A stretch of DNA of 64,000 nt from a virus (taxonomy: Duplodnaviria > Caudoviricetes): the IMG/VR virus record IMGVR_UViG_3300047160_036126, positions 13,575 through 77,574 of that record, one strand, 5' to 3'. The notes beneath the pieces are model-generated. The model did not search any database and was not told the DNA's origin. It saw nothing but the letters and a program-made list of their open reading frames with translations. Shown here piece by piece: positions 8,140 to 64,000 of the stretch; position 1 is the stretch's first letter; every line of letters begins with the position of its first letter. Made by a program: the position numbers and the translations under genes.

Positions 8140-8209
8140 TTAATATCCGCAGAAATCTGCGCAAGGAAATTTCGTTCTTGCGGTAGTAATAAAAAGCGTT
8201 TGATTTATT

Positions 8210-8225: not shown

Positions 8226-8236
8226 TAGATTAAGCT

Positions 8237-13019: not shown

Positions 13020-13060
13020 TTATAGCTCCATTCTGCTATAGGGCGGGTTTAGTCATGCTG

Positions 13061-13351: not shown

Positions 13352-13357
13352 TATCAG

Positions 13358-13579: not shown

Positions 13580-13950
13580 GCCGCCTCCATCAATTCGCGC
13601 GCGCGGACTTTGCTCGACTCCGGCATCTCCCAGCATTCGCCCCAATGGGTTTTGATCTCGATGCCGAACGGCTTGAGTTTTTTGCGCATCTTGCAAATCC
13701 ATACGTCGAGGATCTTCTCACCCGGCGGCTCGTCGGCCTCGGTGCTGTACATTGCCGCAATGAAGGCTTCGACTCTTGGCGCCCGATTGTTAAGCAAAAC
13801 GTTGAACATTTCTGCTTCGCTGCGAGTGAGGTTGAAATAGGGCGGCGGCATATCCGCTCCCTTAAGAGCCTTCTTAAGCAGGCGGATCTCTTCACGCAGC
13901 GTCTCGTTCTCGACGTCAAGAACTTCTGCCCTCGCCTTCCAGTCGATCAT
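13576..13950 (-). CDS. Receiver-less CtrA-like OmpR winged-helix protein with an N-terminal coiled coil
   Basis: DEPPGEKILDVWICKMRKKL...IKTHWG closely matches CtrA DEPELKIIDVFICKLRKKL...IETVWG; no receiver domain. Confidence 0.82.
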   Translation of the reverse strand: MIDWKARAEVLDVENETLREEIRLLKKALKGADMPPPYFNLTRSEAEMFNVLLNNRAPRVEAFIAAMYSTEADEPPGEKILDVWICKMRKKLKPFGIEIKTHWGECWEMPESSKVRARELMEAA

Positions 13951-21616: not shown

Positions 21617-21922
21617 ATGCCATTTGAAAAAGGAAAATCAGGTAATCCGGGTGGCCGCAATAAGGAACATGAGCGGCTGAAAAAGCTCGCGCTGAGCTAT
21701 TGTCCGGCTGCGATCAAGAGATTGGGCGAGTTGATCGCATCGAAGGATGCGCGCACAGCCGTTGCAGCGTCGAGCGCGATTTTGGATCGCGGTCTTGGCA
21801 AACCAGCGCAGGCGTTGGAGCACAGCGGTATGATCGCGACGACGCACGAAGAATATTTAAAACAGCTTGATGCAGGGAATGACGCCGACGGAGAAGGAGA
21901 TCCGGCTTCGGTTGCGGGATGA
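21617..21922 (+). CDS. terS: Terminase small subunit
   Basis: MPFEKGKSGNPGGR; AASSAILDRGLGKP. Confidence 0.8.
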   Translation: MPFEKGKSGNPGGRNKEHERLKKLALSYCPAAIKRLGELIASKDARTAVAASSAILDRGLGKPAQALEHSGMIATTHEEYLKQLDAGNDADGEGDPASVAG

Positions 21923-27466: not shown

Positions 27467-27614
27467 ATAAGATTCCCTTGTTGTTTAAGGCGGTTTACAT
27501 AGGTTATTCCGCAATACAATGAGGTAGTCAAGTCCGAAACCTGGATGGGGATCGGAGTTTGGTCGCTTGCGGCCTTTTGTTCTGATCGTAACCTTAACCA
27601 GATGGAGAAGTACT

Positions 27615-31888: not shown

Positions 31889-33439
31889 ATGCCCATTTAT
31901 AATCTCGGCGCGCTGAATACGGCGGCGCTCACGGCTCCTGACGTCTATATTCAGAAAGTCACGCCGCAGACACGGTTCATCAACGGCGTGCCGACGGATA
32001 TTCTGGGCCTGGTCGGTGCGGGTTCGTGGGGACCGGTCAATAGTCCGGTTCTGGCGGTGGGCGACACCTTCGGGCCGGTGACCTTCCGCAAATACGATCT
32101 CGCGACCGCAATTTTGATCTCCTCGCAGGTCGGCGCCAATAACGTGCGCGCGGTGCGGGTGACGGACGGCACGGATGCGGCTGCGACGGCGACGTTGCTT
32201 GACGGCAGCTCTGCGACCGGAGCCACCCTGACGGCTTACTACACGGGTGTGGTCGGCAACACGCTTTCTGCAATCGTTGGCTCCGGCACCAAGGCCAGCA
32301 CCACGAAGGTGACGATCAACCGTCCGGGCTATGCCTCTGAAGTCTATGATAATATTTCGGGTTCCGGCGCCACGCTTTGGGCCAATATCGTCTCGGCGAT
32401 TAATAGCGGCCAAACGGGCCTTCGTCCACCATCGCAGCTTTGCGTGGCGACGGTCGGATCTTCGACGGCGGCACCGGCCAGCGGTTCGCGGTCGTTTTCC
32501 GGCGGCGCCGACGGCGCGGGTAGTGTTTCGGATTCGACGGTTGTCGGTGCGGATGCAACTTTGCCGTCTTCGAGGACGGGCATGTACGCGCTTCGCGGGT
32601 CTGGCGTGCAGGTCGCAAATCTGATCGATCTTACGGACAACACCCAATGGTCGAATATCGCGACTTTCGCCGATAGCGAAGGTGTTTACATTCCTCTGCC
32701 GGGAGCTTCCGGCCAGAATTACAGCACCGTATCGAGCAATTTAAGTTCGGCTGGCGTCGATACGCCTTCGGTCAAGCCTTTAGTCGGCGATTGGGTCTAT
32801 TGGCAGGACACGGTCAATGGTGTGTTGCGGCTTATGTCGCCGGCGACGTTCTGCGCCGCGGAAATCGCCGCGCTAGCTCCTCACCTCTCTACGCTCAACA
32901 AGCAGTTGCCGGCGGTCGTCGGCACGCAGCGCAACTCCCAAAACCAGCCCTATACCACGGCGGAAATCGGCGCGATTGCGCAGGCGCGTCTCGACGTGGT
33001 CGCCAATCCGTGCCCCGGTGGCCCCTATTACGGCTTCAGGACGGGGCGCAACGGGTCGAGCGATCCCACGCGCAACGGCGACAATTACACGCGCATGACG
33101 AATTTCCTTGCCCTCACCTTTGCGGGTGCATTCGGCTTTGCAATCGGCCAGCCGCAGACGGTGAGCCTGCGCCGGCAGGTCAAAGCGGCGTTCGACTCGT
33201 TCCTTTGGAACCTGGCCGATCCGACGCGCTCCGGCGGCCCAATGATCGGCGATGTGAACGGCGGTCCGCCGTTCTCGGTCGAGATCGACAAGAACAATAA
33301 TCCGGATGCGCGCGTGGCTCTCGGCTACATGCAGGCCGACGTGCAGGTGAAATATCTGAGCATCGTTTGGTTTTTTCTCGTCAACCTCGAAGGCGGCCAG
33401 ACGGTTTCGGTGCGCCTTGTCGGTCAGCAAGCCGCCTAA
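31889..33439 (+). CDS. Tail sheath protein
   Basis: PDVYI..., GSWGPVNSP, GDNYTRMTNFLA, V.YLSIV.FF.VN.EGGQTV. Confidence 0.92.
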   Translation: MPIYNLGALNTAALTAPDVYIQKVTPQTRFINGVPTDILGLVGAGSWGPVNSPVLAVGDTFGPVTFRKYDLATAILISSQVGANNVRAVRVTDGTDAAATATLLDGSSATGATLTAYYTGVVGNTLSAIVGSGTKASTTKVTINRPGYASEVYDNISGSGATLWANIVSAINSGQTGLRPPSQLCVATVGSSTAAPASGSRSFSGGADGAGSVSDSTVVGADATLPSSRTGMYALRGSGVQVANLIDLTDNTQWSNIATFADSEGVYIPLPGASGQNYSTVSSNLSSAGVDTPSVKPLVGDWVYWQDTVNGVLRLMSPATFCAAEIAALAPHLSTLNKQLPAVVGTQRNSQNQPYTTAEIGAIAQARLDVVANPCPGGPYYGFRTGRNGSSDPTRNGDNYTRMTNFLALTFAGAFGFAIGQPQTVSLRRQVKAAFDSFLWNLADPTRSGGPMIGDVNGGPPFSVEIDKNNNPDARVALGYMQADVQVKYLSIVWFFLVNLEGGQTVSVRLVGQQAA

Positions 33440-50325: not shown

Positions 50326-50533
50326 GGATCAAATCGCGGCATTTGTCGCAGTGGGTCGAGTTACTCGGCTGCCGACTGCGCACGCCGTCGCGAGCCAGCA
50401 TGCAAGGGCGATTTCAGAATTTGATAAAGCCGCGCACGAAGTAGCCATTCAAACACGCAAGCGCGACCAGGTCATGCGGTTTGCAAAAACATCGGCGCAG
50501 CGCCGCCGTATGATGGCGGCGGGGCCGCGATGA
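50315..50533 (+). CDS. Hypothetical protein
   Basis: TTG start; QIAAFVAVGRVTRLPT. Confidence 0.45.
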   Translation: MTDEDQIAAFVAVGRVTRLPTAHAVASQHARAISEFDKAAHEVAIQTRKRDQVMRFAKTSAQRRRMMAAGPR

Positions 50534-50973
50534 GCGGTTCGCGCGATCCGGCCGATTTAGACCCCAGTCTTCAACAGCTCGCTCAGCAATTCCTCGAGCA
50601 ATGCGCGGCGGCGGGCATCGAAGCTCTTTTGACGGTCACATACAGATCAGCGGAGGAACAGGATGTCGAATACGCAAAGGGTCGAACTGAACCGGGCCCT
50701 CGGACGACTAATGCCCAGGGAGGCCAAAGTCCGCATAATTGCGTTCTGCCCGATGGCACGCCGGCGGCTCTCGCTTTCGATTTTGCGCTATTCGCTGATG
50801 ACGGGAAGCGCCTTGACTGGGACGGTGACGATCAGCGGTGGCAGACGGCGATAAAAATTGGGGAAGGCCTCGGCCTAATATCAGGCGCGACGTTTCCGGG
50901 GCATCTTTGCGACCGGGATCATCTTGAGCTTAAGGGGTGGAATTCACCCGAGCAAACTCCCCAAAATACCTAA
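50530..50973 (+). CDS. Endolysin, peptidase M15 (L-Ala-D-Glu peptidase-like)
   Basis: TYRS.EEQ...YAKGRT, TNAQGGQSPHN, AFD, DRDHLE. Confidence 0.9.
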   Translation: MSGSRDPADLDPSLQQLAQQFLEQCAAAGIEALLTVTYRSAEEQDVEYAKGRTEPGPRTTNAQGGQSPHNCVLPDGTPAALAFDFALFADDGKRLDWDGDDQRWQTAIKIGEGLGLISGATFPGHLCDRDHLELKGWNSPEQTPQNT

Positions 50974-51481
50974 TAGCAGCGTCATTGTAGGCTTTAGCAG
51001 CTTCGATTTCGTCGCTAAAGAGGCCTAAATAGATCGGGCTGTTGTCGATTTGTATTCTCGCATCCCATTTATTAGCCGATGCATTCCAGCGAACGCCTTT
51101 ATATTTGGATGAGCAATTCGCGCGCTTGAATGCGTTTTGTAAATTTTGCCCGCAGGTTGCCCATCTTAGATTGCTTTTGCAGTTGTTGAGCCCGTCCCCA
51201 TCCTTATGATCGATAAGTGTGCCAGGCTCAGCATTAAGTACAAGACGGTGCATTTTCAAGGAAGCGCGTTTTTTTCGTGGATTATATAATCTTCCGTTAT
51301 GAAATTTTCTAGTTTCGGACTGACCAATGTTTATATTGGTAATGGCATAAAATGCGTCTCTGCGCTTGTCGTGGTGTACATGCCAATTTAATCTGTTAAG
51401 CCGACCAAAATCATCTTCGTCTACGATAGCGAACTTGCCTTGCGTGAGCGGTATTAGTCTCGTATTGGATGAGATAGTCAT
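50930..51481 (-). CDS. HNH-AP2 homing endonuclease
   Basis: LTQGKFAIVDEDD, IDHKDGDGLNNCKSNLR, SSKYKGV, YLGLF..E.EAAKAYN. Confidence 0.9.
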   Translation of the reverse strand: MTISSNTRLIPLTQGKFAIVDEDDFGRLNRLNWHVHHDKRRDAFYAITNINIGQSETRKFHNGRLYNPRKKRASLKMHRLVLNAEPGTLIDHKDGDGLNNCKSNLRWATCGQNLQNAFKRANCSSKYKGVRWNASANKWDARIQIDNSPIYLGLFSDEIEAAKAYNDAAIRYFGEFARVNSTP

Positions 51482-51708: not shown

Positions 51709-52519
51709 ATGAAACCGCTGTGGTGGTGGCCCGTAGTCGATGCCCTGATTTTCAGATACCAGCTTTTGCGAATCTATTTTTACGAGATTATCGCACTGCC
51801 TTGGCGGGCAATCCTCATCCTCACGGTTCTGGCAGGCATAGGCTATGGAACCGCGTGGGCAATCAATCAGGTGCCAGATGCTACAACCGCAAGCGGCGGA
51901 CGCCCTACAGTGGCAGGGAAACACATACCAGGCCGGCCAATGGGGCTACAGCGCAACCTGGCTGCACCGCGACTGGCTAATCAACGGCGATAGCCTGCCA
52001 TGGCAGGCATGGTATTTCTCGAAGGTGCCGCCGCATGCCGCCGCCCCGGTCTATAGGCGCATATTAAACGGCCACTGGGCGCAAATCCTAGAAATCCACG
52101 GGGAATGGATGCTGGCGTCAATCATCCCATGGCCTGCCTTCGTCGCGGAGATGCACCAGGCCCGTTATAGGATGAGGCGGTATTATGTGGCCTATCGGGG
52201 AGAGTGCATAGGTGCCCTGGTCTGCCTGCTCATGGCCCTGGCTGGCTTCTGGATAGGGCTGCTAGGGATGCCCTTTACCGTTGTCGGCCTGCCGCTGATG
52301 GGCATGTTCCTGCGCCATGCGTTTCAGAATGGCATGGCCCTGCGAAAGATTACCGTTGTCGATCCTGGGCCTTACATGCCTCCGCTTCCTCCGCCAACGC
52401 CTGATCCTATCGCACTGCCTTTCGGAACTTCCGAATTCGTGGAGGACACCGACGAAGCCGTAAGGGAAATGGGCAAGTCGTCGTTCCATCTCCCGGCGCA
52501 GCCGCCTTGGCATAAATAA
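51709..52519 (+). pseudogene. Membrane protein upstream of T4CP; two overlapping frames suggest a +1 frameshift near 51.88 kb
   Basis: Hydrophobic N-terminal part in one frame (51709-51993) and the remainder with TM helices in the next frame (to 52519). Confidence 0.4.
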
Positions 52520-52565
52520 CACCACAGGCACTATCCCATAGCCGTTTAAAGGGAGTAAGGCGAAG

Positions 52566-53906
52566 TTGGATGACATTTGGGGTACTTCGGGCGGCGTTTA
52601 TTTAGGCTACGGCTGCACCAATCTTGAAGGGCCGCCAGAAAACATGAGTCGAAAGCCAGTCCAATATGTTGGGGACAGGCATCTAATTACGGTCGGGCCG
52701 TCAGGTGTCGGCAAGTCACGCAAGGCCCTGACGCCGGTGCTTTTGTCATGCCCGCATTGGAGCATGATCGTAATCGATCCCTCGGCGGAGCTTGCGCGCG
52801 CCACGGCGGCGCACCGGGCGAAATATGGCGAGGTCTATTTCCTCAATGCCTATGGCGTGCAGGGCTTCCAGCGCGGCAGCCACAACCCGATGTTGGCTCT
52901 CAACCCCGAAAGCGAGCTATTCGTTGACGACGCCTATGGGCTGTCGGAAGCGATCATCACGCCCAACCCCCAAGCCCGCGAACCGCACTGGCCGCTCTCG
53001 GCGCAAGACCTGACGACCGCCAGCACGATGTACAACCGGCTGAAGTTCGGGGACATCGGCTCGTTCAACGATGTTCGCAAAGACCTGACGAAGACCGCCG
53101 CCGCGTTCCGCGAGACAATCAAGCATATGCGGGAGGTCGCCATTGCGAAGGATTGGGAAGTCCTAGAACACAAGGCCAATCGGTTTCTTGATATAAAGCC
53201 CGACGACAAGGAACTGCATTCGATCCTATCGACGGCGCAGACGGAAACCAGGTGGCTCGATAGTCCGCCTATTCAACGAAGCCTTGAAAAGGGCTTTATA
53301 GATTTTGCTTCGTTTAAACAATCCCCGAAAACGGTTTACATAATTCTTCCGGCCAAGCGCATTGTGACACAAGCGGCATGGATGAAATTGGTGCTTACTT
53401 CGGCCTTGCAGGAATTAATCGGAGATGAACGGAAACCGAAGGTTCCTGTTCTTGTTGCAATGGACGAAGCCTTTCAGATTAATTTCCCGGCACCGTTGCC
53501 GGTACTCGTCCGCTATGCACCTTTAGCGCGTAAATACGGGGTGAAATTCTGGACGTTCTTCCAAGATATTTATCAATTAGAAATGTGCTTCGGCAATCCC
53601 GGTTGGAAAAGTTTTGTCGCCAATACTGGCGTACAGCAATTCTTTGCTCCGACCGATATGGACACAGCCGAGTTCATTTCGAGACGCGCAGGCACTACGG
53701 CAAAGGCAATTCCAAACAGCAGCTATAGCGCCGATTTGAGTACCGGCCTGCGTAGCGGCTCGGCTGATGCAAGCTTTGCCTGGGCCGAATTTCCGGTCTT
53801 TCGGCCCAATGACATAATCAATATGGATCAAACGCTTGTGTTTTGCCACAAGCTGAAAAAGACGTTGATTGCCTTTCTTCCCGATCCATCGGAGATGAAA
53901 GGCTGA
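52566..53906 (+). CDS. virD4: Type IV coupling protein (VirD4/TraG family)
   Basis: HLITVGPSGVGKS Walker A, VIDPSAEL, AMDEA Walker B, QDIYQL. Confidence 0.85.
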   Translation: MDDIWGTSGGVYLGYGCTNLEGPPENMSRKPVQYVGDRHLITVGPSGVGKSRKALTPVLLSCPHWSMIVIDPSAELARATAAHRAKYGEVYFLNAYGVQGFQRGSHNPMLALNPESELFVDDAYGLSEAIITPNPQAREPHWPLSAQDLTTASTMYNRLKFGDIGSFNDVRKDLTKTAAAFRETIKHMREVAIAKDWEVLEHKANRFLDIKPDDKELHSILSTAQTETRWLDSPPIQRSLEKGFIDFASFKQSPKTVYIILPAKRIVTQAAWMKLVLTSALQELIGDERKPKVPVLVAMDEAFQINFPAPLPVLVRYAPLARKYGVKFWTFFQDIYQLEMCFGNPGWKSFVANTGVQQFFAPTDMDTAEFISRRAGTTAKAIPNSSYSADLSTGLRSGSADASFAWAEFPVFRPNDIINMDQTLVFCHKLKKTLIAFLPDPSEMKG

Positions 53907-54024
53907 ATGGATGTTTTGGTTTCGCGTGCGTCTATTTTTAGAGGGTGTTTATGACCATACTGTGTTGCCGGTGATAGTTCTTTGCCAAGAGATAAGTGAT
54001 CGCCGCAAAGCAAAGAAGAACAAA

Positions 54025-54468
54025 TCAAGGATGCCGCGCCCGTGACTTCTTTTGCTGCCGCCGGGTTTGTTGACGTTCGTAGATATCGCGGACGGCCTGT
54101 TGCGCGAGCATGGCAATCTCAGCCTTGCGTTGATCTTTGATTGCCCGAAGCGCAGCGGCCCGTTCAACCGGGTTCTTGATTTTCATCGCCTCTTTCATTC
54201 TAGCGTCGTATCGTGATAGTACAGCGATCTTAGCCGCCGCGATTGCAGCCTTGAGTTCCCCCGAAATCGGCGGATCGGGCATTTCTTTCGTCCAGCCGAG
54301 TTCATTGCGGCACAGCGTCCATAAAAGCGGGAAGTGAGGCAAACGCGATAGGCGTTCCTGGCGCTTCTTGGCTCCTCTCGTTTGATGGACGGCAGCGATT
54401 GAGCGGAATTCGCGTTGCGACCGGCTTTTGCCCTTTTTCGGCTTGCCGTGGCATTTGGGCGAGGCCAC
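54025..54468 (-). CDS. Basic helical hypothetical protein downstream of the relaxase
   Basis: Starts 4 nt after the relaxase stop. Confidence 0.45.
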   Translation of the reverse strand: MASPKCHGKPKKGKSRSQREFRSIAAVHQTRGAKKRQERLSRLPHFPLLWTLCRNELGWTKEMPDPPISGELKAAIAAAKIAVLSRYDARMKEAMKIKNPVERAAALRAIKDQRKAEIAMLAQQAVRDIYERQQTRRQQKKSRARHP

Positions 54469-54472
54469 GGCC

Positions 54473-56326
54473 CTAAAGAGAGTTACCCCCGTAACGCTCT
54501 CGGTCGCGGCTGCTGTATTGCTCTACCTCTCGGTCGCTTTGGGCGTTCTCGCGCAAGACGCGCTCCATTTTGGCGTCGGTGACTTCCTGTTCCTGGCCGC
54601 GCCCCGCCGAAGGTGCGGGCGTCTCGCGTCCCTGATGACGGGCCTGCAACTCGGTTTCCTGCTGGCGCTGGGATTGCTCGCGCTGTTGGGTCTGTTGCTG
54701 TTGGCGCTGTTCGGAGAACTGGTCGCGGTTCTGCTCGATGAAGTTGTCGCGCTGCTTTCTGAGTTCCGCCGCGTCGAAGGCGTAGTTGTCCGCGTCTGCG
54801 CGTGTACGCATCGTCTCTTCGGCATTGCGAGAGCCGGAGATGCAAAAGGATGTTTCCGAGCATTCGTATTCGGTGCGGGCCATATAGTCTTTTTCCTGAA
54901 TTTTGTAGCGGAATTCCATATCTTCCCGCTTGATCGGGTCTTGCTCGGCTTGAATTTCACGGTGCAGCCGGTATTGATCCTGCTTGAACATATGGTTTTC
55001 TATTTCGGCTATGCGGCCTTTGGAAACCATCCAATCGGTGATGTCATAGCGGCCTGACGATACAGCGAGGCTATAGCGAAGATTGGCGTCAACGATCTCG
55101 CCGCCCTGAACCTGTTGGTCGTATTGTTGCTGGTGTGAGGTTTTCTTGCGCTCAGCCTCTTCGGCTTCTGCGTAGGATTCCTTTTGCTGCTGCCTTGCCG
55201 CGTCCTCCGCCTTTCCGCGCCAGCGGTCGAAATCACGCTGGCTCTCGATCTGACGATATTCTTCAAGTTTGCGGTGGACATCGGCGGCTTCTTCCCAGCC
55301 TTCCTTGAGCTGTTTGCCACGGTTCTGGACGCGCTGCTTTTCCTCTTCCTCGTTCAAACGATTTTGGTGGTCCTCGGGATGAAGCGGGACATGCGCGCGA
55401 ATCTCATCCTCGCCAACTGGCCGCCAGCCTTGGTTTTGCTCGCGCTTGTGGTTGCTGTCGTCCACGATCTCTTGAACGGTCGGCATCTCTTCGGCTTTCT
55501 TCTGCTGAAGTTGCTGGATTTGGGAAGTCACTTTGTCGATAGCCACGGCGTACTTCTCGGCCTCGGCCTTGTCGGCCAGTTCGCGTTCTTCGTTACGCGC
55601 GCGGATTTCCCGGTTTTCATCGCCGGTCGGCGTGGGGACACCCTGTAGCTCGGCCTGGTTCTGCTTGTTGCCAAGATGCTTGGTCGGCTCGCGGTCAATG
55701 CCCTGTTCGGCGTAGCTGAGATGAGACCAGCGGTCGGGCAATCCGGCTTTTTCAAAACCTTCGTTGATCTTCTCGGCAATCGTTGCCCGCATCCATTCCG
55801 TTTCGGACGCCTGCTCGGCAAAGGCCGTGAGGTAGCGGATTTTCTTATCGGCAAAACCGTCGGGGCCTACCTCTTTCATATTGTTAACAAGGTGGCCGTG
55901 CCAGTTGTCCTTGTTGCCGTGTTGGGTCGGTTCGTGAAGGGAATAGGCGGCCATATATCCGTAGCGGTCGCAGAAGGCGTGCGCGATGCTTTTTACGATC
56001 TCGAAATTCTGTTCGGGTGTGAGTTTGCCGGATAGGGCGAAATTCCAGTGCTGGGCAAGGCGGGCATTGATGCGGCTGTCGTCCGTCTGTACCGCGTTCC
56101 AGGTTTCGGCAAGCCGGTCGAGGTCGAGGAATTGTTCGGGCGCTTCGGCGCGCGCTGCCATGCCGTAGTCCCAGACGTCGCCTTTGTGATTGCGGCGGCA
56201 AGTTTCGCCTGTCTCTTCATTGTACAGATTTTCGCCGGTAATATAGGCGACGGCTCCAACGGCGGATTTTCCTTTTCCGCGACTGACAGGTTTGACGTTG
56301 GCGTGATACTGGCTTGGCGTGGCCAT
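54473..56326 (-). CDS. mobA: MobA/MobL (MOBQ) relaxase
   Basis: YHANVKPVSRGKGKSAVGAVAYITG (catalytic Tyr), SLHEP...NWHGHLV, HLSYAEQGIDREPTKHLG. Confidence 0.92.
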   Translation of the reverse strand: MATPSQYHANVKPVSRGKGKSAVGAVAYITGENLYNEETGETCRRNHKGDVWDYGMAARAEAPEQFLDLDRLAETWNAVQTDDSRINARLAQHWNFALSGKLTPEQNFEIVKSIAHAFCDRYGYMAAYSLHEPTQHGNKDNWHGHLVNNMKEVGPDGFADKKIRYLTAFAEQASETEWMRATIAEKINEGFEKAGLPDRWSHLSYAEQGIDREPTKHLGNKQNQAELQGVPTPTGDENREIRARNEERELADKAEAEKYAVAIDKVTSQIQQLQQKKAEEMPTVQEIVDDSNHKREQNQGWRPVGEDEIRAHVPLHPEDHQNRLNEEEEKQRVQNRGKQLKEGWEEAADVHRKLEEYRQIESQRDFDRWRGKAEDAARQQQKESYAEAEEAERKKTSHQQQYDQQVQGGEIVDANLRYSLAVSSGRYDITDWMVSKGRIAEIENHMFKQDQYRLHREIQAEQDPIKREDMEFRYKIQEKDYMARTEYECSETSFCISGSRNAEETMRTRADADNYAFDAAELRKQRDNFIEQNRDQFSEQRQQQQTQQREQSQRQQETELQARHQGRETPAPSAGRGQEQEVTDAKMERVLRENAQSDREVEQYSSRDRERYGGNSL

Positions 56327-56343
56327 TTCGGCCTATTTTGGTG

Positions 56344-56385
56344 GCGATTTCGGAGAAATCGCGTTAAGTGCGCTGCGCACCCTTC
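56344..56385 (+). other. oriT: Origin of transfer (MOBQ-type oriT)
   Basis: Perfect IR GCGATTTC-GGA-GAAATCGC (56344-56362) followed by TAAGTGCGC (56365-56373), the RSF1010-family core; lies between the divergent relaxase and accessory genes. Confidence 0.8.
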
Positions 56386-56482
56386 CCCCGATATAATACC
56401 CTTTCCCGCACCATTTCCGGCCTGCTATAATTTGCGCGGTGGGAAACTATCACACCCTACCGGCAGACCAAAGGCTTTCCTG

Positions 56483-56857
56483 ATGGCATCCTTACTCGAT
56501 GAAGAGCAAAAGCTGAGACAACGGGAGAAGGCCAGAATTGACGAAGCATGGCAGGCCAAGGCTAAAGCCAATCAGGCCAAGGCCAAGCTCACGGCTCTCA
56601 AACGGCAAATTACAGCTACGCGCAAGGGATTTATCATAGAAGCGTGGTACGAGGGATTGACCAAGGGGGAGCTAAAGCCGAATGAGCTTGATGCCCTCAA
56701 ATCCGTCCTAAGACGTCATATGATAAAGCTTGAGAAGCGCCCCGATTGGGAGAAGCGGGTCAAGGACAATTGGGCTGTGTTGGACGATATTCTAGCAGAT
56801 AGTCCGAGTGTCCAGCCACCGGAGGAATTGGAAGATGCATGGAGAGAAACCGCTTAA
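56483..56857 (+). CDS. Relaxosome accessory protein candidate (MobC/TraC-like)
   Basis: Coiled-coil protein divergent from the relaxase across oriT. Confidence 0.5.
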   Translation: MASLLDEEQKLRQREKARIDEAWQAKAKANQAKAKLTALKRQITATRKGFIIEAWYEGLTKGELKPNELDALKSVLRRHMIKLEKRPDWEKRVKDNWAVLDDILADSPSVQPPEELEDAWRETA

Positions 56858-56904
56858 GCGCCCGTGCAGCGCAAGCAGGTTAGTCCGAGAGTCCGGAGGT
56901 CGCT

Positions 56905-57177
56905 ATGCCGGTCTTGCCGTTCAAAATCCTGACACCTAACACCTATGATCCCGGTGAATGGGAAGCGGTCTTAACCTGGGCATTGCCTCGCAAGCCGTCC
57001 GTTGAATTTGTGGATAGATTGACGCGATGCACTTTGGAATATCTCGATTGTTTTTCTCGCCGTATGCCAGATGAGCGATTGAGGCAGGAAAGGATTGATT
57101 ACCTGATAACCCTTGCGTCTGTTCGCTTAAAACAACTTACAAGAATGAGACGGGATGCAGAGAGGATAATGAAATGA
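56905..57177 (+). CDS. Hypothetical protein
   Basis: GGAGG RBS. Confidence 0.55.
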   Translation: MPVLPFKILTPNTYDPGEWEAVLTWALPRKPSVEFVDRLTRCTLEYLDCFSRRMPDERLRQERIDYLITLASVRLKQLTRMRRDAERIMK

Positions 57178-57578
57178 GCGACCGCGAGACTGACGAAAAC
57201 CGGATTGCCGATCTTGCCCGCGCTCATGACCTAATATTTAGGCGCAAGGGTAGCTCCTATGTGTTCAAGGACTTCACGGCCCACGGTTACAGGCAGGCTC
57301 TTGGCTATGTTGAAGGCTTTGCCGCCGCCGCGAATGATGCTGTGGCCCTGAAATCCGAAATGCCCGGAAAAACTGTATATCGGCTGATCGTTGCAGAAGA
57401 CCCTTACGACATAAAAGTCTATGAGGCGATTTACGGTATGAGCCAAACGGAAGCGGTAGATCACCTTATCGAGAAAAGTTGCTGGCGGGACGATATGCCC
57501 AAATTCGTCGGCGGAAAAGGAACGCCACAAGATAGGCTGACGGCGCTCCGGGCAGCTTTCAAGGCTCAGCTAGGGTAA
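57174..57578 (+). CDS. Hypothetical protein
   Basis: ATGA-coupled. Confidence 0.55.
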   Translation: MSDRETDENRIADLARAHDLIFRRKGSSYVFKDFTAHGYRQALGYVEGFAAAANDAVALKSEMPGKTVYRLIVAEDPYDIKVYEAIYGMSQTEAVDHLIEKSCWRDDMPKFVGGKGTPQDRLTALRAAFKAQLG

Positions 57579-58051
57579 ATTCCCCGGATGCGGTGCCAGA
57601 GACGGGTGAGGCGCTTGGGCTCCTCTCTTGACTGGACGTGATGCGGTGCTTGCCATCGAAATCCATTAGGTCGCCAACTTGGGTCTTCATAATTGCCGGG
57701 TTCGGCCATGCGTTTTATGAGATATTGGACTTGTGAATTTTCTTCCGGGGAAACCCAAGCCTTCGGTCCTAGCTGGTAATAAAGCCCTAGAACATTTAAG
57801 CGCCATTCGGTCTGCACGATCCGCATTTGAGCCATGCGAAGTTTGCGGCGTTGCTCGTCTTCCGGTTCCCGTTCTTCCTTGAAGCCGTAGCGTTCACCCT
57901 GAAGGGCATCGCCATAGACCTGCGCAAAATGGCGCGACCATGAATGGATTTCGGCCAGCAATTCCACGCTGGCGTCAAGCGGGATCGGAAGCGCGACTGC
58001 GTTCCATACGTCCTGTTCCATAGCTTCGAAGGTTAGCTTCTTCTCGGTCAT
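57566..58051 (-). CDS. Hypothetical protein
   Basis: Last gene of the ardC operon. Confidence 0.55.
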   Translation of the reverse strand: MTEKKLTFEAMEQDVWNAVALPIPLDASVELLAEIHSWSRHFAQVYGDALQGERYGFKEEREPEDEQRRKLRMAQMRIVQTEWRLNVLGLYYQLGPKAWVSPEENSQVQYLIKRMAEPGNYEDPSWRPNGFRWQAPHHVQSREEPKRLTRLWHRIRGIYPS

Positions 58052-58380
58052 TCGATCCTCTTCAAAGCCTCTACCGCCGCCGCGTGGGCAAGATCAATGT
58101 CCGACCAATCGACATGCTCGCCGTGCGCCTCGCCGTTGTCGTAGGCCATGACCAGCAACCGGCAGGCGTTGACTAACTGGTCAAAAGCGTTGACTGCGCG
58201 GACGATGAGGGCGGCGTTGGCCAGATTTTCGGGGTGTGGTTCGTTCGGTTTGGTAGGTTGTCGGCCACTCGGTAATGCTGCGATAGCCGACGAGTTGGCG
58301 ATGATATAGATATATTGTTCTGTCTCCATGAGAGACCATGGGCTAGGTGTCGTCTCGCGGATTGTGTCGGTGTCAGTCAT
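58048..58380 (-). CDS. Phage-type small protein (TPxPW...ANA.LI family)
   Basis: TTPSPW...ANAALIVRAVN. Confidence 0.6.
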   Translation of the reverse strand: MTDTDTIRETTPSPWSLMETEQYIYIIANSSAIAALPSGRQPTKPNEPHPENLANAALIVRAVNAFDQLVNACRLLVMAYDNGEAHGEHVDWSDIDLAHAAAVEALKRIE

Positions 58381-58685
58381 GGCTCGCCTTTCTGCCCCTC
58401 GGCCTTAGCAACGATGGCGCGCGCTTTTTCGAGGCGTTCTGTCTGGGTTTTGCCAAACTGATGGGTAGAGCGGAACGCTTCAAGAATGCGTGTCACGCCC
58501 TTTAAGGCGTCCAGCAATTCCGGCGCAGCGGCGATAAGCCGTGCATTTGCCGTTGTTTCAGATTTTATTTCCCCGTTGCCATTCGAAAGCTGGCCGCAAA
58601 TCCATGCCGTTGGCGACATAATGCAAAGCTGTCCGGTTACTGGAGCTTTTTCTATCTGCCATGGTCCGGGTGTGTGCCTGCTCAT
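58377..58685 (-). CDS. Phage-type small protein (HTPGPW...ANARLIAAAPELL family)
   Basis: HTPGPW, ANARLIAAAPELLDAL. Confidence 0.7.
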   Translation of the reverse strand: MSRHTPGPWQIEKAPVTGQLCIMSPTAWICGQLSNGNGEIKSETTANARLIAAAPELLDALKGVTRILEAFRSTHQFGKTQTERLEKARAIVAKAEGQKGEP

Positions 58686-59548
58686 GGGGTAGGCTCCTGC
58701 CCTTCCAGCCGTGGAGCCGGTCGCGCTGGCTGACTGCCCTCAAGTATGAAATCGGTCGCCGCTTGGGCCTTTGAAAAAACCGTGATGACAATGCGTTTGT
58801 CCTCGCGCATCGCCTCAACCCAGTTGTTGAGATATTTGGCCGTCTCGGCGCGCGGCTCTGGAACAACGCCAGCCTGAGCGGCGGTCAAGGCCGCCGAAGT
58901 TTCAGCGATTAATTCCTCAAAGGCATAGGCCCGGTCGCCAAATCGTTGTCCGAGCTCGCGGTTAAGCCGCGTCGGATGCGCAGTCCAGTGCGCGAGTTCG
59001 TGCAAGACAGTGCTGTAAAATCCTTCCTGCGAAAGGAATTGCTCGGCCTTTGGCATGATGATCCGGTCTTGGCTCGGTATATAAGCCGCACGGTCGCCGC
59101 CATAGGAGATGTCTGCGCCGGTTGCGGTGATGATCCGGTCACATTCGGCATGGCGTTCAATTGGTGTGCGGTTCTTGGTCGGGATAATCGGCGCGTCGTC
59201 GCATTGCGCGATGTTGAAAACGGCATAGGTGCGAGCCATTAGGATTTGGCGTTCGTCGTCCGCTTCTCGGTCTTTGACGGTCAGTGGCTTCCAAAAGAAA
59301 ATACGGGTGGCCTTCTCGCCTTTGCGGACTTGGGCGCCAAGCTCTGCCCATTGCCGATAGGTTCCCCAAACCTGAGAAGAATATCCGGCAACCCCAAGGA
59401 TCGGGATGTTGATCCCGCGATAGCTGCGCTTCGTGATGATGTTCTTTGCGATGCCGTCGCCAAGCCACGGCCTGCGCCAATCGCTGCCGTTTTCGAGCAT
59501 GAGTTTAAGTATTTTGTCGGTGATTTCCTGTGCGAGGTCTGCTTTCAC
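58682..59548 (-). CDS. ardC: ArdC ssDNA-binding antirestriction protein
   Basis: WRRPW, YRGIN..IL, WGTYRQW..LGAQVRKGEK, VFNIAQ, HELAHWT, YAFEELIAE. Confidence 0.93.
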   Translation of the reverse strand: MKADLAQEITDKILKLMLENGSDWRRPWLGDGIAKNIITKRSYRGINIPILGVAGYSSQVWGTYRQWAELGAQVRKGEKATRIFFWKPLTVKDREADDERQILMARTYAVFNIAQCDDAPIIPTKNRTPIERHAECDRIITATGADISYGGDRAAYIPSQDRIIMPKAEQFLSQEGFYSTVLHELAHWTAHPTRLNRELGQRFGDRAYAFEELIAETSAALTAAQAGVVPEPRAETAKYLNNWVEAMREDKRIVITVFSKAQAATDFILEGSQPARPAPRLEGQEPTP

Positions 59549-59583
59549 TGGTCAACGCGTCTCTCCCTTCTTCTTGCTCTTGG

Positions 59584-60102
59584 CTAACTATCAATCGAAA
59601 GATCGTTGAGACAGGCGAATTCCCCCTGTTCTTTTAATGCTGCATCATTATATGCCTTGGCAGCTTCAATTTCAGTGTCGAAATAGCCGAGATATCGTTG
59701 CTTCTTGTTGAATTTTATTCGCGCAATCCATTTTTCGTAGTTTTTATCTTTATAGACGCCTTTGTATTTGCTGGTTTTCGTGACGAAGATGCGGTTCATA
59801 TTATTTTGTGAATAGGTTGCTGGCCGCAGATTGGATTTACGATTGTCTAATCCGTTCCGATTCCTATGATCGGCGAATCTTCCCTTCCCAAGCTTCAATA
59901 TAAATCTGTGCATGGGCTGGCGGGTATTGGCATGTAGAGCATACTCTGTGAACGAGCGGGGTTTTATATATCTGCGATGATGCCAACGGTGCTGGTTGAC
60001 GCGCTCGTAATCTTCTTCATCAATAATCGCCCATTTCCCCTTCGATAAATAAATCATAACAGGGTCTTTGGGATGCCATTCATTATTTGATATAGTCGTC
60101 AC
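59584..60102 (-). CDS. HNH-AP2 homing endonuclease, paralog of 50930
   Basis: LSKGKWAIIDEED, DHRNRNGLDNRKSNLR, SKYKGV, YLGYF..E.EAAKAYN. Confidence 0.9.
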   Translation of the reverse strand: MTTISNNEWHPKDPVMIYLSKGKWAIIDEEDYERVNQHRWHHRRYIKPRSFTEYALHANTRQPMHRFILKLGKGRFADHRNRNGLDNRKSNLRPATYSQNNMNRIFVTKTSKYKGVYKDKNYEKWIARIKFNKKQRYLGYFDTEIEAAKAYNDAALKEQGEFACLNDLSIDS

Positions 60103-60147
60103 GTCTCCTCTGTTCTGCCCTTCGCGGGCTCGTTGGTCTTCGCTGAC

Positions 60148-60354
60148 TTAAATCACCGCCGCCAGTTCCGCCTCATACCTCTCATTCCCTTCGCGGAAGC
60201 GGTCGGGATCGTGGGTTTTCAACATATCAAGTGCCTCGTCTGCGGTGTGGCGCATCCGAATGAGGGCGTCGAAGGCGTCCTCAATCGACAGTTGGCCGTC
60301 GCTCCATTCGTCAAGGATGGTTTCGAGTTCGAGCATGTACTGATCCTCGGTCAT
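60148..60354 (-). CDS. Hypothetical protein
   Basis: Coupled ORF. Confidence 0.55.
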   Translation of the reverse strand: MTEDQYMLELETILDEWSDGQLSIEDAFDALIRMRHTADEALDMLKTHDPDRFREGNERYEAELAAVI

Positions 60355-60659
60355 GCGGCCCCCAGTTGCTCGTAGATCGCCCGCGCCTGCTCGGCGGTGG
60401 TGACCCGGTTATCAGGATCGCAGAACGCCGCATTCTCGATGTGGAACCGCTCGGCGGCGTGCAATTGCGGGATGAGTCCGGCGAGTTGGTCATCCTCGCA
60501 ACCGCCGCTTACTTCCATGACGCGGCTCTTGCGAAACTCGGCCTTGCGTTCAAGGTGATAGCGGTTGGTGAAATATCCGCGCCAATTTTCGCCCATATCC
60601 ACGATTTGATAATGCCGGGTTTCAGCGACGATGTTTTCCATAGGACGGCTCCCTGTCAT
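60351..60659 (-). CDS. Hypothetical protein, first gene of the ardC operon
   Basis: Start ATG 60659 or 60641 (GGGAG RBS). Confidence 0.55.
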   Translation of the reverse strand: MTGSRPMENIVAETRHYQIVDMGENWRGYFTNRYHLERKAEFRKSRVMEVSGGCEDDQLAGLIPQLHAAERFHIENAAFCDPDNRVTTAEQARAIYEQLGAA

Positions 60660-60672
60660 TGAATAGTAAAAG

Positions 60673-60688
60673 TAACCAGTAATGGTTA
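60673..60688. promoter_or_regulatory. Operator TAACCA-N4-TGGTTA upstream of the ardC operon
   Basis: TAACCA-GTAA-TGGTTA, perfect palindrome. Confidence 0.6.
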
Positions 60689-60791
60689 TGACCTGAATTG
60701 ACGGATATTGGAAGAAAAAAGTGCTACTTGGCGCGCAATAAACTTGCGAATTTCGAGTTGTTGGAATCCAGCTATTTTGTTACTATAGGGA

Positions 60792-61259
60792 ATGTTTAAA
60801 CTTACGGGAAAACGTTGCTTTTGGTGCGATATACCTCTTGTTTTGGCCATCAAGGATTTCCCCGCCAACCTGCCACTCCCGAACAGCCAGACGAAAGACC
60901 ACCTCGTTCCGAAAGCGAGGCGGGGCAGAAAGAAGGTGGCTTGCTGTTATGAGTGCAACCAACTCAAGGGCGGCATGGACCCTTTTGTGTTCCGGTCCCA
61001 ACATCGGCCCCATGTGTCCGAACGAAAAATCCGGGATGCTTTGGCTGGGCAAATCCCAATAGAGAATCAACGCCAACGTAAAGAAGCGCGTAGGCGAATC
61101 CGCCGACAAAAAGAGAATATTATGAGCAGCACGATAGTCGGTTATATTTCGACAAGGCACGTTCTTACGCGCCGAAATCCTTTTGCGCGCGATATGCGCG
61201 TGAAGCTGATCGCGGAGCGTGTGAAATTTTGTCGTGAAACTCCTATCGAGCGGTGCTAA
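60792..61259 (+). CDS. HNH endonuclease
   Basis: CFWC...TKDHLVP...ACCYECNQLKG. Confidence 0.85.
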   Translation: MFKLTGKRCFWCDIPLVLAIKDFPANLPLPNSQTKDHLVPKARRGRKKVACCYECNQLKGGMDPFVFRSQHRPHVSERKIRDALAGQIPIENQRQRKEARRRIRRQKENIMSSTIVGYISTRHVLTRRNPFARDMRVKLIAERVKFCRETPIERC

Positions 61260-61348
61260 TTTACTTGCGGATGCCCCGGCGTCCTTCCCCTGCCGCAATG
61301 AAATGCTCAGGTGCCGGGGTGACGGCTTAATGCCTTCGGGCGGCTATC

Positions 61349-61513
61349 TCAATCGTCTGCGTTGATGTCGTAAGTTGTTCCTTCTTCGTCTGTCACCTCA
61401 AAGTGATCGGCGCGGTTGGAAGGATCAAGCTGAATGCGCCGGGCTTGGCGAGCAGCTTGCTCCGGCGTTTCAGCCTCGATCTCTATTGTCCACGTCACTG
61501 TATATTCAGGCAT
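61349..61513 (-). CDS. Small acidic protein, not in the ORF track
   Basis: MPEYTVTWTIEIEAETPEQAARQA... (54 aa); GGGGAG RBS. Confidence 0.6.
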   Translation of the reverse strand: MPEYTVTWTIEIEAETPEQAARQARRIQLDPSNRADHFEVTDEEGTTYDINADD

Positions 61514-61526
61514 GGAACTCCCCCGA

Positions 61527-63299
61527 CTAAGCCGGAGTGCGGAGCAGTGCCGGAAGCCAGCCGGTTGTTTTCAGCTTCCGCTCGGCGAGTGCCGTGAGTT
61601 CGGATTTCTTGAGGCCAACCGGGGCGGATGCCGGGTCTTTCGGGCATTGTTCTTTCAGCGCCGCCGTGATCTGCGCGGCGGATACCCGGCTGAAATAATT
61701 CTCCGCTGTCGGTTGCCACCATTCGGCCATGTCGAGCTTGAGCGCTTCGGCAAGGTCGGCGTGGTCGTCACTGTCCGGCTGCACGGTGGTCGTATCGACC
61801 GTGTGACCGGCGCAGAGGGCGAGAATGCCAAGCAGCGTCTTTTGATCCTGCTTTGTCAGCCAGCCCCACAGCTTGTCCACGTCCTTCGGCATGCCCTTGC
61901 GCACGGCTTTCGTCGTCGCCTCAAGCTGCTTGTGGGCCTTGGTGCTTTCGAAGCCTTCGGGGAGATAGGCAACGCTTGCGTTGATCTTGAGCGAGCCGGA
62001 AGTGCGGCCATAGATCACATCCACGGCGAGCGAATGCACCACGGCGACAAGCGCCACCTTCGGGTTTTCGGCGAGCATCGCCTGTAGCGCTGCCGTCCGG
62101 TGCGCCGTGAGATTTTGCACCAAGGCGGCGGATAGGTGGGCTTCGTCGTCCTTGTCGGTCTTTTTGCCCTTTGACTTTTTGGCCTCCGTTTTCCGCTCGG
62201 CCTTCATATCCTCCGGGCTGACAAGGCCGCGATGGAGTTCGGCCTTTCCATTGTGGGCGATTGTGATAACCACGCCCGATTTTGCCATGTCGTCGGCGGA
62301 AAAGCTCGCCTCGGTCTTGATTTCCGCCAGCCGTTCCTGGATATGGTCATAGCGGTCTTGTGCGTTCTCGTCCTCGCCGTCCAGTGCCTCTTGCTCCTCA
62401 ATGAGCTTATCGGCTTCCGTGCGCGCCTCTTTCGAAAGAGTTGGTGTGAGCTTGCGGAATTTCTGTTGCTCGCTGTATCCAAAGTCCGGTTTGATCTCTA
62501 CCCACTTCCAGCCCTTGGCGCGAAGATCGGCGGCGATTTGTTCAAGCTTGGCTTGCGCGAGTTCATTTAAAAGTACAGGATCGGCAAAATAACCTTGGTC
62601 GTCGGCATCAAAGAGGTCGCGCACGACTTCGCCGCCCGCTTCCTTATAGGCGTCCGTGCCAACGAATAGAGCGAGTTTGTTGCGCCGCGCGTCGATATAC
62701 TTTTCAAGCAGCGCGTCGCGGATCGTGTCGGCGTCTTCGTAATCCCGGCATGCCTTCCATACTTTTTCCTGTTGCTTGTGATCGTCGCTCACGGTGAATG
62801 CCATGAGCATTTCGAGCGTCATGTCACCGGCGCGGTACGCCTTTATGAGCTTCGGGCTGACGACCGCCAGCTTGAGGCGTTGTTCGACCACTTTGGGCGT
62901 CACGCCGAATTTCGCGGCGATGGTGTCGTTCCCCTGCCCATCGTCGGCCAGCCTCTTGAACGCCTCGAACTGGTCGGCGGGGTGCATGGCCGCGCGCATC
63001 TCGTTCTCGGCGAGGCTGATTTCGTGATCGTCTTGGCCGTTGAGTACGTGCGCGGGAATACCGGATTCCAAATCGGCGGGCAGGCGCTTCTCCTTGGCGA
63101 GAAGTTTGAGCGCTGCGAGACGCCGCATACCGGCGACGACTTCGAATTTGTCGTCCTGCTCGCGCACTTGAAGATTTTGAAGGAGGCCGAGTGCCGCGAT
63201 GTTGTCGGCCAGTTCCTTGATGCCTTCGTTGGTGTGAGTTTTGCGGACGTTCGCGGCGGATGGGATTAGTTTATCGAGAGCGATATTCTGTATTTGCAT
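61527..63299 (-). CDS. ParB/RepB/Spo0J-family protein of the plasmid leading-region type
   Basis: NVRKT, GLLQNLQV, EVVAGMRRLAAL, SLAENEMR..MHPADQF. Confidence 0.88.
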   Translation of the reverse strand: MQIQNIALDKLIPSAANVRKTHTNEGIKELADNIAALGLLQNLQVREQDDKFEVVAGMRRLAALKLLAKEKRLPADLESGIPAHVLNGQDDHEISLAENEMRAAMHPADQFEAFKRLADDGQGNDTIAAKFGVTPKVVEQRLKLAVVSPKLIKAYRAGDMTLEMLMAFTVSDDHKQQEKVWKACRDYEDADTIRDALLEKYIDARRNKLALFVGTDAYKEAGGEVVRDLFDADDQGYFADPVLLNELAQAKLEQIAADLRAKGWKWVEIKPDFGYSEQQKFRKLTPTLSKEARTEADKLIEEQEALDGEDENAQDRYDHIQERLAEIKTEASFSADDMAKSGVVITIAHNGKAELHRGLVSPEDMKAERKTEAKKSKGKKTDKDDEAHLSAALVQNLTAHRTAALQAMLAENPKVALVAVVHSLAVDVIYGRTSGSLKINASVAYLPEGFESTKAHKQLEATTKAVRKGMPKDVDKLWGWLTKQDQKTLLGILALCAGHTVDTTTVQPDSDDHADLAEALKLDMAEWWQPTAENYFSRVSAAQITAALKEQCPKDPASAPVGLKKSELTALAERKLKTTGWLPALLRTPA

Positions 63300-63310
63300 G
63301 GCGAAATCTC

Positions 63311-63370
63311 CCCTTTGGCAGATTGTGAGAAAATAACCATCTTTGGTTACTCCTTGTTATTGCCAAAGGG
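63311..63370. promoter_or_regulatory. Nested inverted repeats with a central operator upstream of the parB-like gene
   Basis: CCCTTTGGCA(63311-63320)/TGCCAAAGGG(63361-63370) flanking TAACCA-TCTT-TGGTTA (63334-63349). Confidence 0.6.
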
Positions 63371-63415: not shown

Positions 63416-64000
63416 TTATGGCGCTGTCCTTAACTGCTCGAAAGTGGGACAATCGGGCATAAAGCTCCAAAACACTTCAAAGGATGAGACTTCTGACGAC
63501 GCCCAGACAAAGGGTAATAGGCTCTCCATGTCAGGGAGCACGTCAATCTGGCCGGTCGGCACATTCCTAATCTGAAGATCGGCAAGCTCCAAATCATAAG
63601 GCATCGGCATGAGAGGTTCTTTGAGCTGGACGATAATTTCCCGGCCTCTGTCCTCAATGGAAACCGGCAATGGCGGCGCGGGATCTATATCCTTCTTGGT
63701 GAAAGTGAACGTTAGGTGCTTACCCTGATGGTCGGGGTCAAATGTTGAGACAGTCTTCTGAATAGTTACGCGTACATTTTTAACCGGCCACACCCCTGTA
63801 TTCCTAAGCCGAATTTGAAAGATGACGTTCCTCTTATCTGGGCACCCGTATGCATATCCGTGCACAACGAACGCGGCCGCTTTTAGTTGCTGTACCCGGA
63901 CTTCGTTTTGAAACCAGTAGTAATTGAGGAATGGGCTGGCGAGCGAAATGACCAACGCCGCCGTGGAAATCGCGAGCGTTAGTCTCTCGTGTCGCGTCAT
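63416..64000 (-). CDS. Membrane-anchored hypothetical protein (start at the window edge)
   Basis: N-terminal transmembrane segment LTLAISTAALVISLASPFL. Confidence 0.55.
   Translation of the reverse strand: MTRHERLTLAISTAALVISLASPFLNYYWFQNEVRVQQLKAAAFVVHGYAYGCPDKRNVIFQIRLRNTGVWPVKNVRVTIQKTVSTFDPDHQGKHLTFTFTKKDIDPAPPLPVSIEDRGREIIVQLKEPLMPMPYDLELADLQIRNVPTGQIDVLPDMESLLPFVWASSEVSSFEVFWSFMPDCPTFEQLRTAP

Follow-up and report, generated by a model that had tools for sequence, protein, structure and literature searches.

A MOBQ mobilization module that very probably belongs to a temperate contractile-tailed phage

We analyzed a 64,000-nucleotide stretch of viral DNA (the window), which comprises bases 13575–77574, the right 64 kb, of IMGVR_UViG_3300047160_036126, a 77,574-bp single-contig IMG/VR record of class 'provirus' (here called G000). 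In this window, the virion and lysis genes of a temperate contractile-tailed phage are followed by a mobilization module consisting of a type IV coupling protein (T4CP), a relaxase of the MOBQ family, and a transfer origin (oriT). We find the module to be real, intact, and conserved; it very probably belongs to the phage. In the reading that we favor, to which we assign a probability of about 0.55, an accessory arm between the lysis genes and the integrase/attachment-site (att) end captured a core of the type found in integrative mobilizable elements (IMEs), with oriT, a MOBQ relaxase, and a soluble T4CP, and this core now shares the inheritance and regulation of the phage. From this layout we infer that both parts would be excised together, dock at a helper pore, and be transferred; a dual route of spread, by virion and by a borrowed mating pore, appears plausible from the sequence. 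Positions below are those of the window unless given as contig positions, which count along the whole record.

Genes were called by matches to Pfam and PHROGs. The virion module, identified by PHROG matches, runs on the + strand from 21867 to 48082 and encodes terminase (21867–23309), portal (23902–25296), major head protein (27567–28784), sheath (31889–33439), tape measure, baseplate, and fibers, a set of the myovirus type. It is followed by an endolysin gene (50530–50973, +; phrog_15351, 1.5e-17) and by an HNH+AP2 endonuclease gene (50930–51481, −; Pfam), the gene that immediately precedes the transfer module. Terminase, portal, major capsid, sheath, baseplate, lysin, and integrase are all present, as in a temperate contractile-tail phage. 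The nearest named phage portals are those of Caudoviricetes sp. MW202621 (54% identity) and Caulobacter phage DMCA (46%), and the host is probably an alphaproteobacterium. From integrase through early region to virion and lysis, the gene order resembles that of phage lambda.

The T4CP gene (VirD4/TraG family; 52566–53906, +) matches PF02534 at 1.7e-39 (136 bits), PF12696 (61 bits), and PF10412. Its product has no N-terminal transmembrane anchor: the maximum Kyte–Doolittle (KD) hydropathy over 19 residues is 1.14, and the Walker A motif already begins at residue 44 (residues 44–51). The Walker A and B residues G44–S51, D300, and E301 are invariant among 24 homologues, and the short form is common to the whole subfamily (446–470 aa), island-borne relatives included. 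Directly upstream lies the gene for a 224-aa membrane protein (51845–52519, +) with no family match and a hydrophobic hairpin at residues 115–155 (KD 2.45), which is possibly a separate anchor for the T4CP, i.e., one part of a split coupling protein. The relaxase gene (54473–56326, −; 617 aa) matches MobA/MobL (PF03389) at 3.8e-29, scoring 102.5 bits against a curated cut-off of 26.7 and covering profile positions 1–222 of 224. A Tyr motif, AVAYITGE, at residues ~23–31 and a His motif (H...HxH), HEPT...NWHGHLVNN, at ~131–148 were assigned by eye against established knowledge. Compared with annotated MobQ relaxases, its best plasmid matches, the protein is 30–37% identical over the first ~230–290 residues only. 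Downstream of the relaxase gene is that for a basic 147-aa protein (54025–54468, −) with no Pfam or PHROG match.

The oriT (56344–56390, +) sits eighteen bases upstream of the relaxase gene and consists of an 8+8 inverted repeat, GCGATTTC-GGA-GAAATCGC (56344–56362), then GTTAAGTGCGCTGCGCACCCTTCC; the sequence after the inverted repeat reads GTTAAGTGCGC. The published MOBQ oriT consensus is NWACCNNTAAGTGCGCCCTYNN (PMC3832669), and the core of the G000 site, TAAGTGCGC, agrees with the core of that consensus. Measured against the full pattern TAAGTGCGCCCT, the repeat and TAAGTGCGC match and the last three consensus bases differ; this is a candidate nick site. No VirB4-size open reading frame (ORF) and no family match to a type IV secretion system (T4SS) was found in those ORFs of the 77.6-kb record that were scanned. 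The module thus has the composition of an iMOB element: oriT and relaxase are present, and mating-pair formation genes were not found.

A preliminary description of the window, made from its letters alone, had reported a complete-looking virion gene set followed by T4CP, MOBQ relaxase, intact oriT, ArdC, and ParB-like genes, with no T4SS. The Pfam and PHROG matches and the oriT architecture bear out this succession, and the T4SS search agrees with it. One element of that description did not survive: the ParB-like gene had been taken as a mark of the plasmid-type module, but the same family occurs in 77 IMG/VR records, 30 of them with the gene <3 kb from a record end, and almost none of these records has a MOBQ gene. 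Metagenome contigs yielded at least 477 further matches to the family, and the pair of ArdC and ParB-type genes was seen in a viral record (G057) that has no relaxase. The gene for the ParB-type protein belongs to phages no less than to plasmids and is not plasmid-specific. Because the ParB-type family and the ArdC–ParB-type pair also occur in proviruses and viral records without relaxase, we narrowed the conjugation-specific core to 51.8–56.4 kb (with or without ArdC), where it is set between phage-typical genes.

Relatives with the same fusion, which the preliminary description had proposed to seek, were found by an alignment search with the T4CP. The search returned G001 (46.6 kb) and G002 (62.3 kb), both of them IMG/VR proviruses that come from samples other than that of G000. 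From terminase to fibers they are syntenic with the window, their proteins being 45–80% identical, and both keep the order of G000 from tail through T4CP and relaxase to the ParB-type gene. Identities to the G000 proteins are 37–39% for the T4CP, 25–35% for the relaxase, 37–48% for ArdC, and 38–42% for the ParB-type protein, all in open frames; that the frames remain open at 25–48% identity indicates long purifying selection. Among 50 IMG/VR records that share the portal, a MobA/MobL gene is present in only G001 and G002. The oriT of G002 lies in the same place and has the same design with another inverted repeat, TGCAAACGC-GT-GCGTTTGCA, then AAAGTGCGCTAACCCTTC, and it carries the same nick-region variant (AAGTGCGCT...ACCCTTC). 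Because the same virion-to-mobilization order recurs in independently assembled relatives, the module is neither a chance neighbor nor the misassembly that had been considered as a refutation. Surveys call conjugation genes in phage-plasmids rare (6 of 222 in E. coli) and suspect co-integrates or artifacts (PMC10123127), and the G000 module might by the same token be inert cargo or an assembly chimera. However, the arrangement is present in three separate assemblies from different samples, its frames are open at the identities given above, and its catalytic motifs are intact, and we regard this explanation as highly improbable.

The positions of the integrases bear on whether phage and module form one element. 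The single integrase match in the 77.6-kb record is a tyrosine integrase of 351 aa (PF00589, 2e-21; contig 12763–13818, −), the 5′ part of which occupies window 1–244 and which adjoins the early-left operon. No second tyrosine integrase was found in G000, and the sole serine-recombinase match is a 5′-truncated resolvase at the contig start. In G002, the sole integrase (61155–62249) lies beyond the ParB-type gene and the module, at the right record end, and the early-left operon reaches the left record end without an integrase. These positions imply that both genomes have the circular order virion–lysis–mobilization–integrase–early, with an int/att cassette that is inverted between the two and only 27% identical. 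The preliminary description had recognized no att site or second integrase between the modules; in agreement, each record has one integrase, no att-like direct repeat was found that brackets 51.5–64 kb or lies at the 51.5-kb junction, and no recombinase occurs at that junction. In G000, the mobilization core is bounded on the left by the lysis genes and the HNH-AP2 gene, and on the right by two phrog_1273 genes, an HNH-AP2 paralogue, and the ParB-type gene.

The record itself was cut by software. It begins exactly on a stop codon and ends exactly on an ATG, which indicates excision from a larger contig at gene borders, and the parent contig of the T4CP is 85,424 bp long, leaving about 7.85 kb of flank outside the record. 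No terminal overlap was seen in the record, and its stop/ATG ends reflect gene-border cutting, not circularity. 'Prophage', the word first used for this DNA, has to be replaced by what the data are, an IMG/VR provirus record of 77,574 bp with gene-boundary cuts and host flanks out of view. Between the integrase side and the right end, TTCTGACGACGCCCAG is the sole repeat with a length of ≥16 nt (contig 12078–12093 and window 63491–63506; chance p about 0.06); its copies lie 670 bp past the stop codon of the integrase gene and 190 bp past the start of the ParB-type gene. Tried as an att site, this 16-mer was left unproven, as its flanks are unrelated and the rebuilt 'empty site' yields no sensible gene.

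Short palindromes are common to the phage early region and the arm. In G000, TAACCA-N4-TGGTTA is present exactly at 60673 and 63334 and with one mismatch each at 8116 and 8210, four sites compared to 0.06 expected. The two near-palindromes (8116–8131 and 8210–8225) lie in the divergent early intergenic region (8076–8236), which is flanked by leftward ORFs (7856–8077 and 7578–8075) and by a rightward 93-aa ORF (8237–8518). A 14-mer, CTCCTTGTTATTGC, at 8083–8096 recurs only at 63350, each copy beside a palindrome site; the second copy and the exact palindrome TAACCATCTTTGGTTA together occupy 63334–63363, 35 bp upstream of the ParB-type gene. A 102-aa ORF with no family match (60351–60659, −) lies directly downstream of the other exact site (60673–60688). 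G002 has a palindrome of its own, GCAACA-N-TGTTGC, in five exact copies, two in the early region (1136 and 6483) and three in the arm (53799, 56176, and 59444), with none in the virion genes and 0.06 expected per 20 kb; one copy precedes the operon with the ParB-type gene. Two lineages that each have their own site in common to early region and arm are hard to explain if the arm is an unrelated neighbor.

The ParB/KorB-type protein (61527–63299, −; 590 aa; PF02195), DNA-binding by family, is an attractive candidate for the factor that binds these palindromes, with 8116, 8210, 60673, and 63334 as putative sites and a KorB-like role. What makes this assignment attractive is the presence of CTPase and helix-turn-helix (HTH) domains and of a site 35 bp before its own gene. 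Residues 1–187 of its profile match Spo0J/ParB/Noc structures including the HTH (2e-18), and the profile aligns to residues 26–180 of Spo0J (1vz0) and 4–184 of Noc (7ng0), covering CTPase domain and HTH. An upstream palindrome that recurs in the locus was found at only two of 140 surveyed loci that have relatives, which yields no general rule. The small candidate regulators of G000 and G002 have no detectable homology to each other, the ORFs next to the sites have no family match, and a sigma-70 consensus scan around the palindromes returned no sites. The operator that the module was first said to share with the phage switch is real as a palindrome, and may be a ParB/KorB-type site instead of a switch operator. 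With intact genes, the same arrangement in two relatives, a single integrase, and the shared palindromes, the proposed fusion of phage and mobilization module is supported in part, minus the ParB-like gene as a plasmid part.

Convergent T4CP/relaxase pairs like that of G000 also occur in chromosomes of alphaproteobacterial metagenome-assembled genomes and in Paraburkholderia. At these loci, no virion gene of this set lies within 10 kb of the pair, and in the chromosomal relatives checked a tyrosine integrase lies 7–8 kb from the pair. These loci are IME-like islands and the likely donor kind of the module. Relaxase or T4CP matches among 50,697 phage records came only from two cyanophage records and a handful of tiny virome contigs (22–38% identity). 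The relaxases of G000 and G002 are sisters (Shimodaira–Hasegawa-like approximate likelihood-ratio test, SH-aLRT, 95), and that of G001 falls in another branch. In the maximum-likelihood (ML) tree of the T4CPs, the terminal branches of all three phage-linked proteins measure 1.0–1.4 compared to a median of 0.14, i.e., 7–10 times the median, which suggests that the T4CP evolves faster once phage-borne. We read the module as a capture from the IME pool that was partly passed on by vertical descent and later subject to module exchange. A circular 40,229-bp record called viral (G056; 95-bp terminal repeat) carries ArdC, a ParB-type gene, a 717-aa T4CP, and a relaxase; it was considered as evidence of packaging and set aside, since virion homologues are absent from it and it is probably a plasmid.

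HUH relaxases and rolling-circle initiators are related proteins. This kinship raises the alternative that relaxase, oriT, and ATPase have been co-opted for a job internal to the phage, such as rolling-circle late replication or the processing of DNA for packaging, and no longer serve conjugation. A T4CP without a membrane anchor would fit such a role, and its long branches could mean changed function. However, the anchor-less short T4CP of 446–470 aa is also that of island-borne relatives, the phage has DnaB-type replication genes of its own, and the full conjugative layout is kept, with inverted repeat and nick core, an island-like convergent T4CP/relaxase pair, and ArdC on the leading side. 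We consider co-option improbable.

Several points weigh against the favored reading. The T4CP lacks the usual membrane anchor, and no helper T4SS is known for the host. A genome of about 65 kb may strain the capsid; portal-sharing relatives with terminal repeats (46% portal identity) are 47–50 kb long. Two close relatives, G006 and G007 (portal 65–67% identical), have no mobilization module after the fibers, which makes the module accessory and the arm a variable slot. The three phage-linked T4CPs form no clade in the ML tree (monophyly is not rejected by the approximately unbiased test, p = 0.088), and the position of the G001 relaxase in another branch implies that modules have been swapped. 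attL and attR were not found in the record, which is cut at gene boundaries, the sole att candidate is the 16-mer (p about 0.06), which the ORF layout does not support, and the automatically called provirus borders may include a neighboring island. Among 50 IMG/VR records that share the portal, a MobA/MobL gene is present in only G001 and G002.

Some of these points would also be expected of two adjacent elements, namely a prophage and beside it an IME or an integrase-less cis-mobilizable island, which arrived by same-att accretion or is a satellite-like hitcher tuned to the phage regulator, and which moves alone. T4CP/relaxase pairs of this family normally reside in chromosomal islands with their own integrase, the unsupported T4CP monophyly and the G001 relaxase point to repeated exchange, two close phage relatives do without the module, the integrase of G002 adjoins the module and could belong to it, and the record borders are software-made. 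Such a pair of elements is nonetheless difficult to reconcile with a single integrase in G000 and a single one in G002, with a junction that has neither repeat nor recombinase, with a G002 early-left operon that stops at the record border without an integrase, with early-region and arm palindromes that co-vary in two lineages, and with a right flank of the core that is phage-typical. On balance, we judge two separate elements unlikely and keep to a module carried by the phage.

If phage and module do form one element, transfer could proceed as follows. Derepression would switch on the early genes and the transfer arm jointly, and Int would excise a circle of roughly 65 kb. The relaxase would then nick the + strand at ~56373, immediately 3′ of the inverted repeat, and remain on the 5′ end, and the T4CP, perhaps with the 224-aa membrane protein, would pass the complex to the T4SS of a co-resident conjugative element. 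In relaxase systems the inverted repeat lies 5′ of nic and transfer runs 5′ to 3′; because the inverted repeat precedes the nick core on the + strand, DNA to the right of ~56373 would enter first. The arm right of oriT would thus lead, its first 7 kb holding the genes for ArdC and the ParB-type protein; last to enter would be the phage body together with the relaxase gene, whereupon the element would recircularize and either integrate or grow. As ArdC and the ParB-type gene are encoded on the − strand, the transferred strand would be their template. Leading regions of plasmids are rich in anti-defense genes in the same arrangement (PMC13478746), and ArdC has been described as an establishment gene (PMC6294495). 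A further, tentative proposal, which we hold to be possible but doubtful, is that the ParB/KorB-type protein made from the first-entering arm binds the lineage-specific palindromes of the early switch and so decides between quiescence and zygotic induction in the recipient, in phages with two built-in routes.

The deduced direction of transfer leads toward the right end of the record, a distance of only about 7.6 kb, and no excisionase was identified. Both observations would suit a module that acts in the integrated state, where nicking at oriT would drive Hfr-like transfer of the arm and of host DNA past the right end, to the benefit of gene flow and not of phage spread. This explanation leaves the retention of the module in three diverged phages and its tie to the early-region palindromes unexplained, and it is compatible with the favored reading as a side effect; as the main role of the module we think it quite improbable.

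The remaining genes of the arm lie to the right of oriT. Three small ORFs (124, 90, and 134 aa; 56483–57578, +) have no PHROG match and are followed by a 161-aa ORF and two tandem phrog_1273 genes (57566–58685, −; the tandem genes at 58048–58380 and 58377–58685, matching at 2.3e-6 and 2.8e-20). The ArdC-type antirestriction protein (58682–59548, −) has both the single-stranded-DNA-binding N domain (PF08401, 1.5e-29, 103 bits) and the C-terminal zincin peptidase domain (PF18818, 1.2e-42, 145 bits). The second HNH+AP2 endonuclease (59584–60102, −) is 40% identical to its paralogue at 50930–51481. Of the phage-type genes first noted in the module, this paralogue was confirmed, and the phage-type family named beside it is corrected to the two tandem phrog_1273 genes. 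Beyond the ParB-type gene the record continues for 0.7 kb and ends in the gene for a 194-aa membrane protein (63416–64000, −), the ATG of which forms the last three bases of the record; it holds the 16-mer also found at contig 12078 and has no homologue in G001 or G002.

Searches at the nucleotide level found no near relatives in phage or plasmid collections; the sole match was a 61-bp stretch of the ParB-type gene with 90% DNA identity to ParB genes on large conjugative plasmids from enterobacteria and Pseudomonas. The last 51 bases of the record had no exact match in scans of viral, metagenome, and genome contigs, and when metagenomes were scanned with the alignment of the ParB-type protein, 80 other loci came up, none of them on the parent contigs of G000, G001, or G002. 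No tRNA genes were found in G000. G002 has tRNA-Met and tRNA-Ser genes at 17483–17653, just upstream of the terminase region, which are absent from G000 and G001.

The leftward early operon of G000 includes MT-A70, YqaJ exonuclease, and ERF genes, and a DnaB-type helicase gene lies right of the divergent region at ~8.1 kb. A 78-aa ORF of the early rightward operon (8790–9026) matches HNH endonuclease PHROGs, and the record contains at least five HNH-type genes (2078–2584, 8790–9026, 9861–10556, 50930–51481, and 59584–60102). The 12.5 kb left of the integrase have no counterpart in the relatives; since nothing there is shared with them, this stretch may be another island or satellite. It contains genes for a DUF5681 protein, an AAA_25 ATPase (436 aa), an HTH_3 protein, and a HATPase_c protein (568 aa) at contig 2200–8623, and three copies of GTCCTC-N6-GAGGAC within 65 bp (contig 5426–5490). 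The resolvase (contig 1–486) lacks its first ~45–55 codons, including the catalytic-serine region, and the record border falls on its stop codon.

We compared the G000 arrangement with known systems, and no published description of it was found. The module shares with the MOBQ plasmids RSF1010/R1162 a MobA/MobL catalytic domain with Tyr and His motifs and an oriT that is placed upstream of the relaxase gene, divergent from it, and that consists of an inverted repeat and then TAAGTGCGC. It departs from them in the relaxase, where identity is confined to the N-terminal part and the C-terminal half is unrelated, in the tail of the nick region (GCTGCGCACCCT versus CCCT), in having its own T4CP, and in that no MobB/MobC was recognized. 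In KorB of IncP plasmids and at the ParB sites of N15, a ParB-family protein acts at short palindromes that are spread across the promoters of several modules. G000 is similar in the CTPase and HTH domains of its ParB-type protein and in its dispersed palindromes, one before the protein's own operon, and different in that it has no ParA partner. The co-varying palindromes provide a concrete and testable regulatory link between phage and arm.

Phage-plasmids of the P1, N15, and SSU5 groups (PMC7969092) likewise combine phage and plasmid genes. Within the clade of G000, G006, whose major head protein is 80% identical, has genes for a Rep_3 initiator, ParA, and a HerA/FtsK-like ATPase in the same arm, following the tail fibers; because Rep_3 and ParA are present and an integrase is absent, we regard it as a candidate phage-plasmid, and it shows that the arm is a slot where this clade swaps plasmid-type modules. 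G000 differs in having an integrase, and neither Rep nor ParA was found among its scanned ORFs. P1-derived plasmids have gained mob/oriT and lost phage functions (PMC10879196), whereas the phage gene set of G000 looks complete. The 'conjugative prophage' Phi1207.3 of Streptococcus pyogenes is similar in its reported contact-dependent movement from cell to cell, but no such relaxase/T4CP/oriT module is described for it in PMC4260502 and PMC5154133, its host is Gram-positive, and the phage is unrelated.

The closest parallels are iMOB IMEs and CloDF13-type mobilizable plasmids, which have a relaxase, an oriT, and their own coupling protein (PMC11389934). G000 has the same minimal kit of oriT, relaxase, and T4CP, no mating-pair genes, and an expected dependence on a helper pore, and the nearest relatives of its T4CP and relaxase sit in such chromosomal islands; the carrier, by contrast, is an apparently autonomous tailed phage with its virion, lysis, replication, and integration set. 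It is customary to regard phages and conjugative elements as users of separate transfer routes, and autonomous phages do not figure among the conjugation-mobilized elements in reviews of hitchers (PMC11389934). If the favored reading is correct, exit through a mating pore would free the phage from its receptor-limited host range and let it reach adsorption-resistant cells, and the scheme of helpers and hitchers would be blurred by an autonomous virus that hitches on conjugation.

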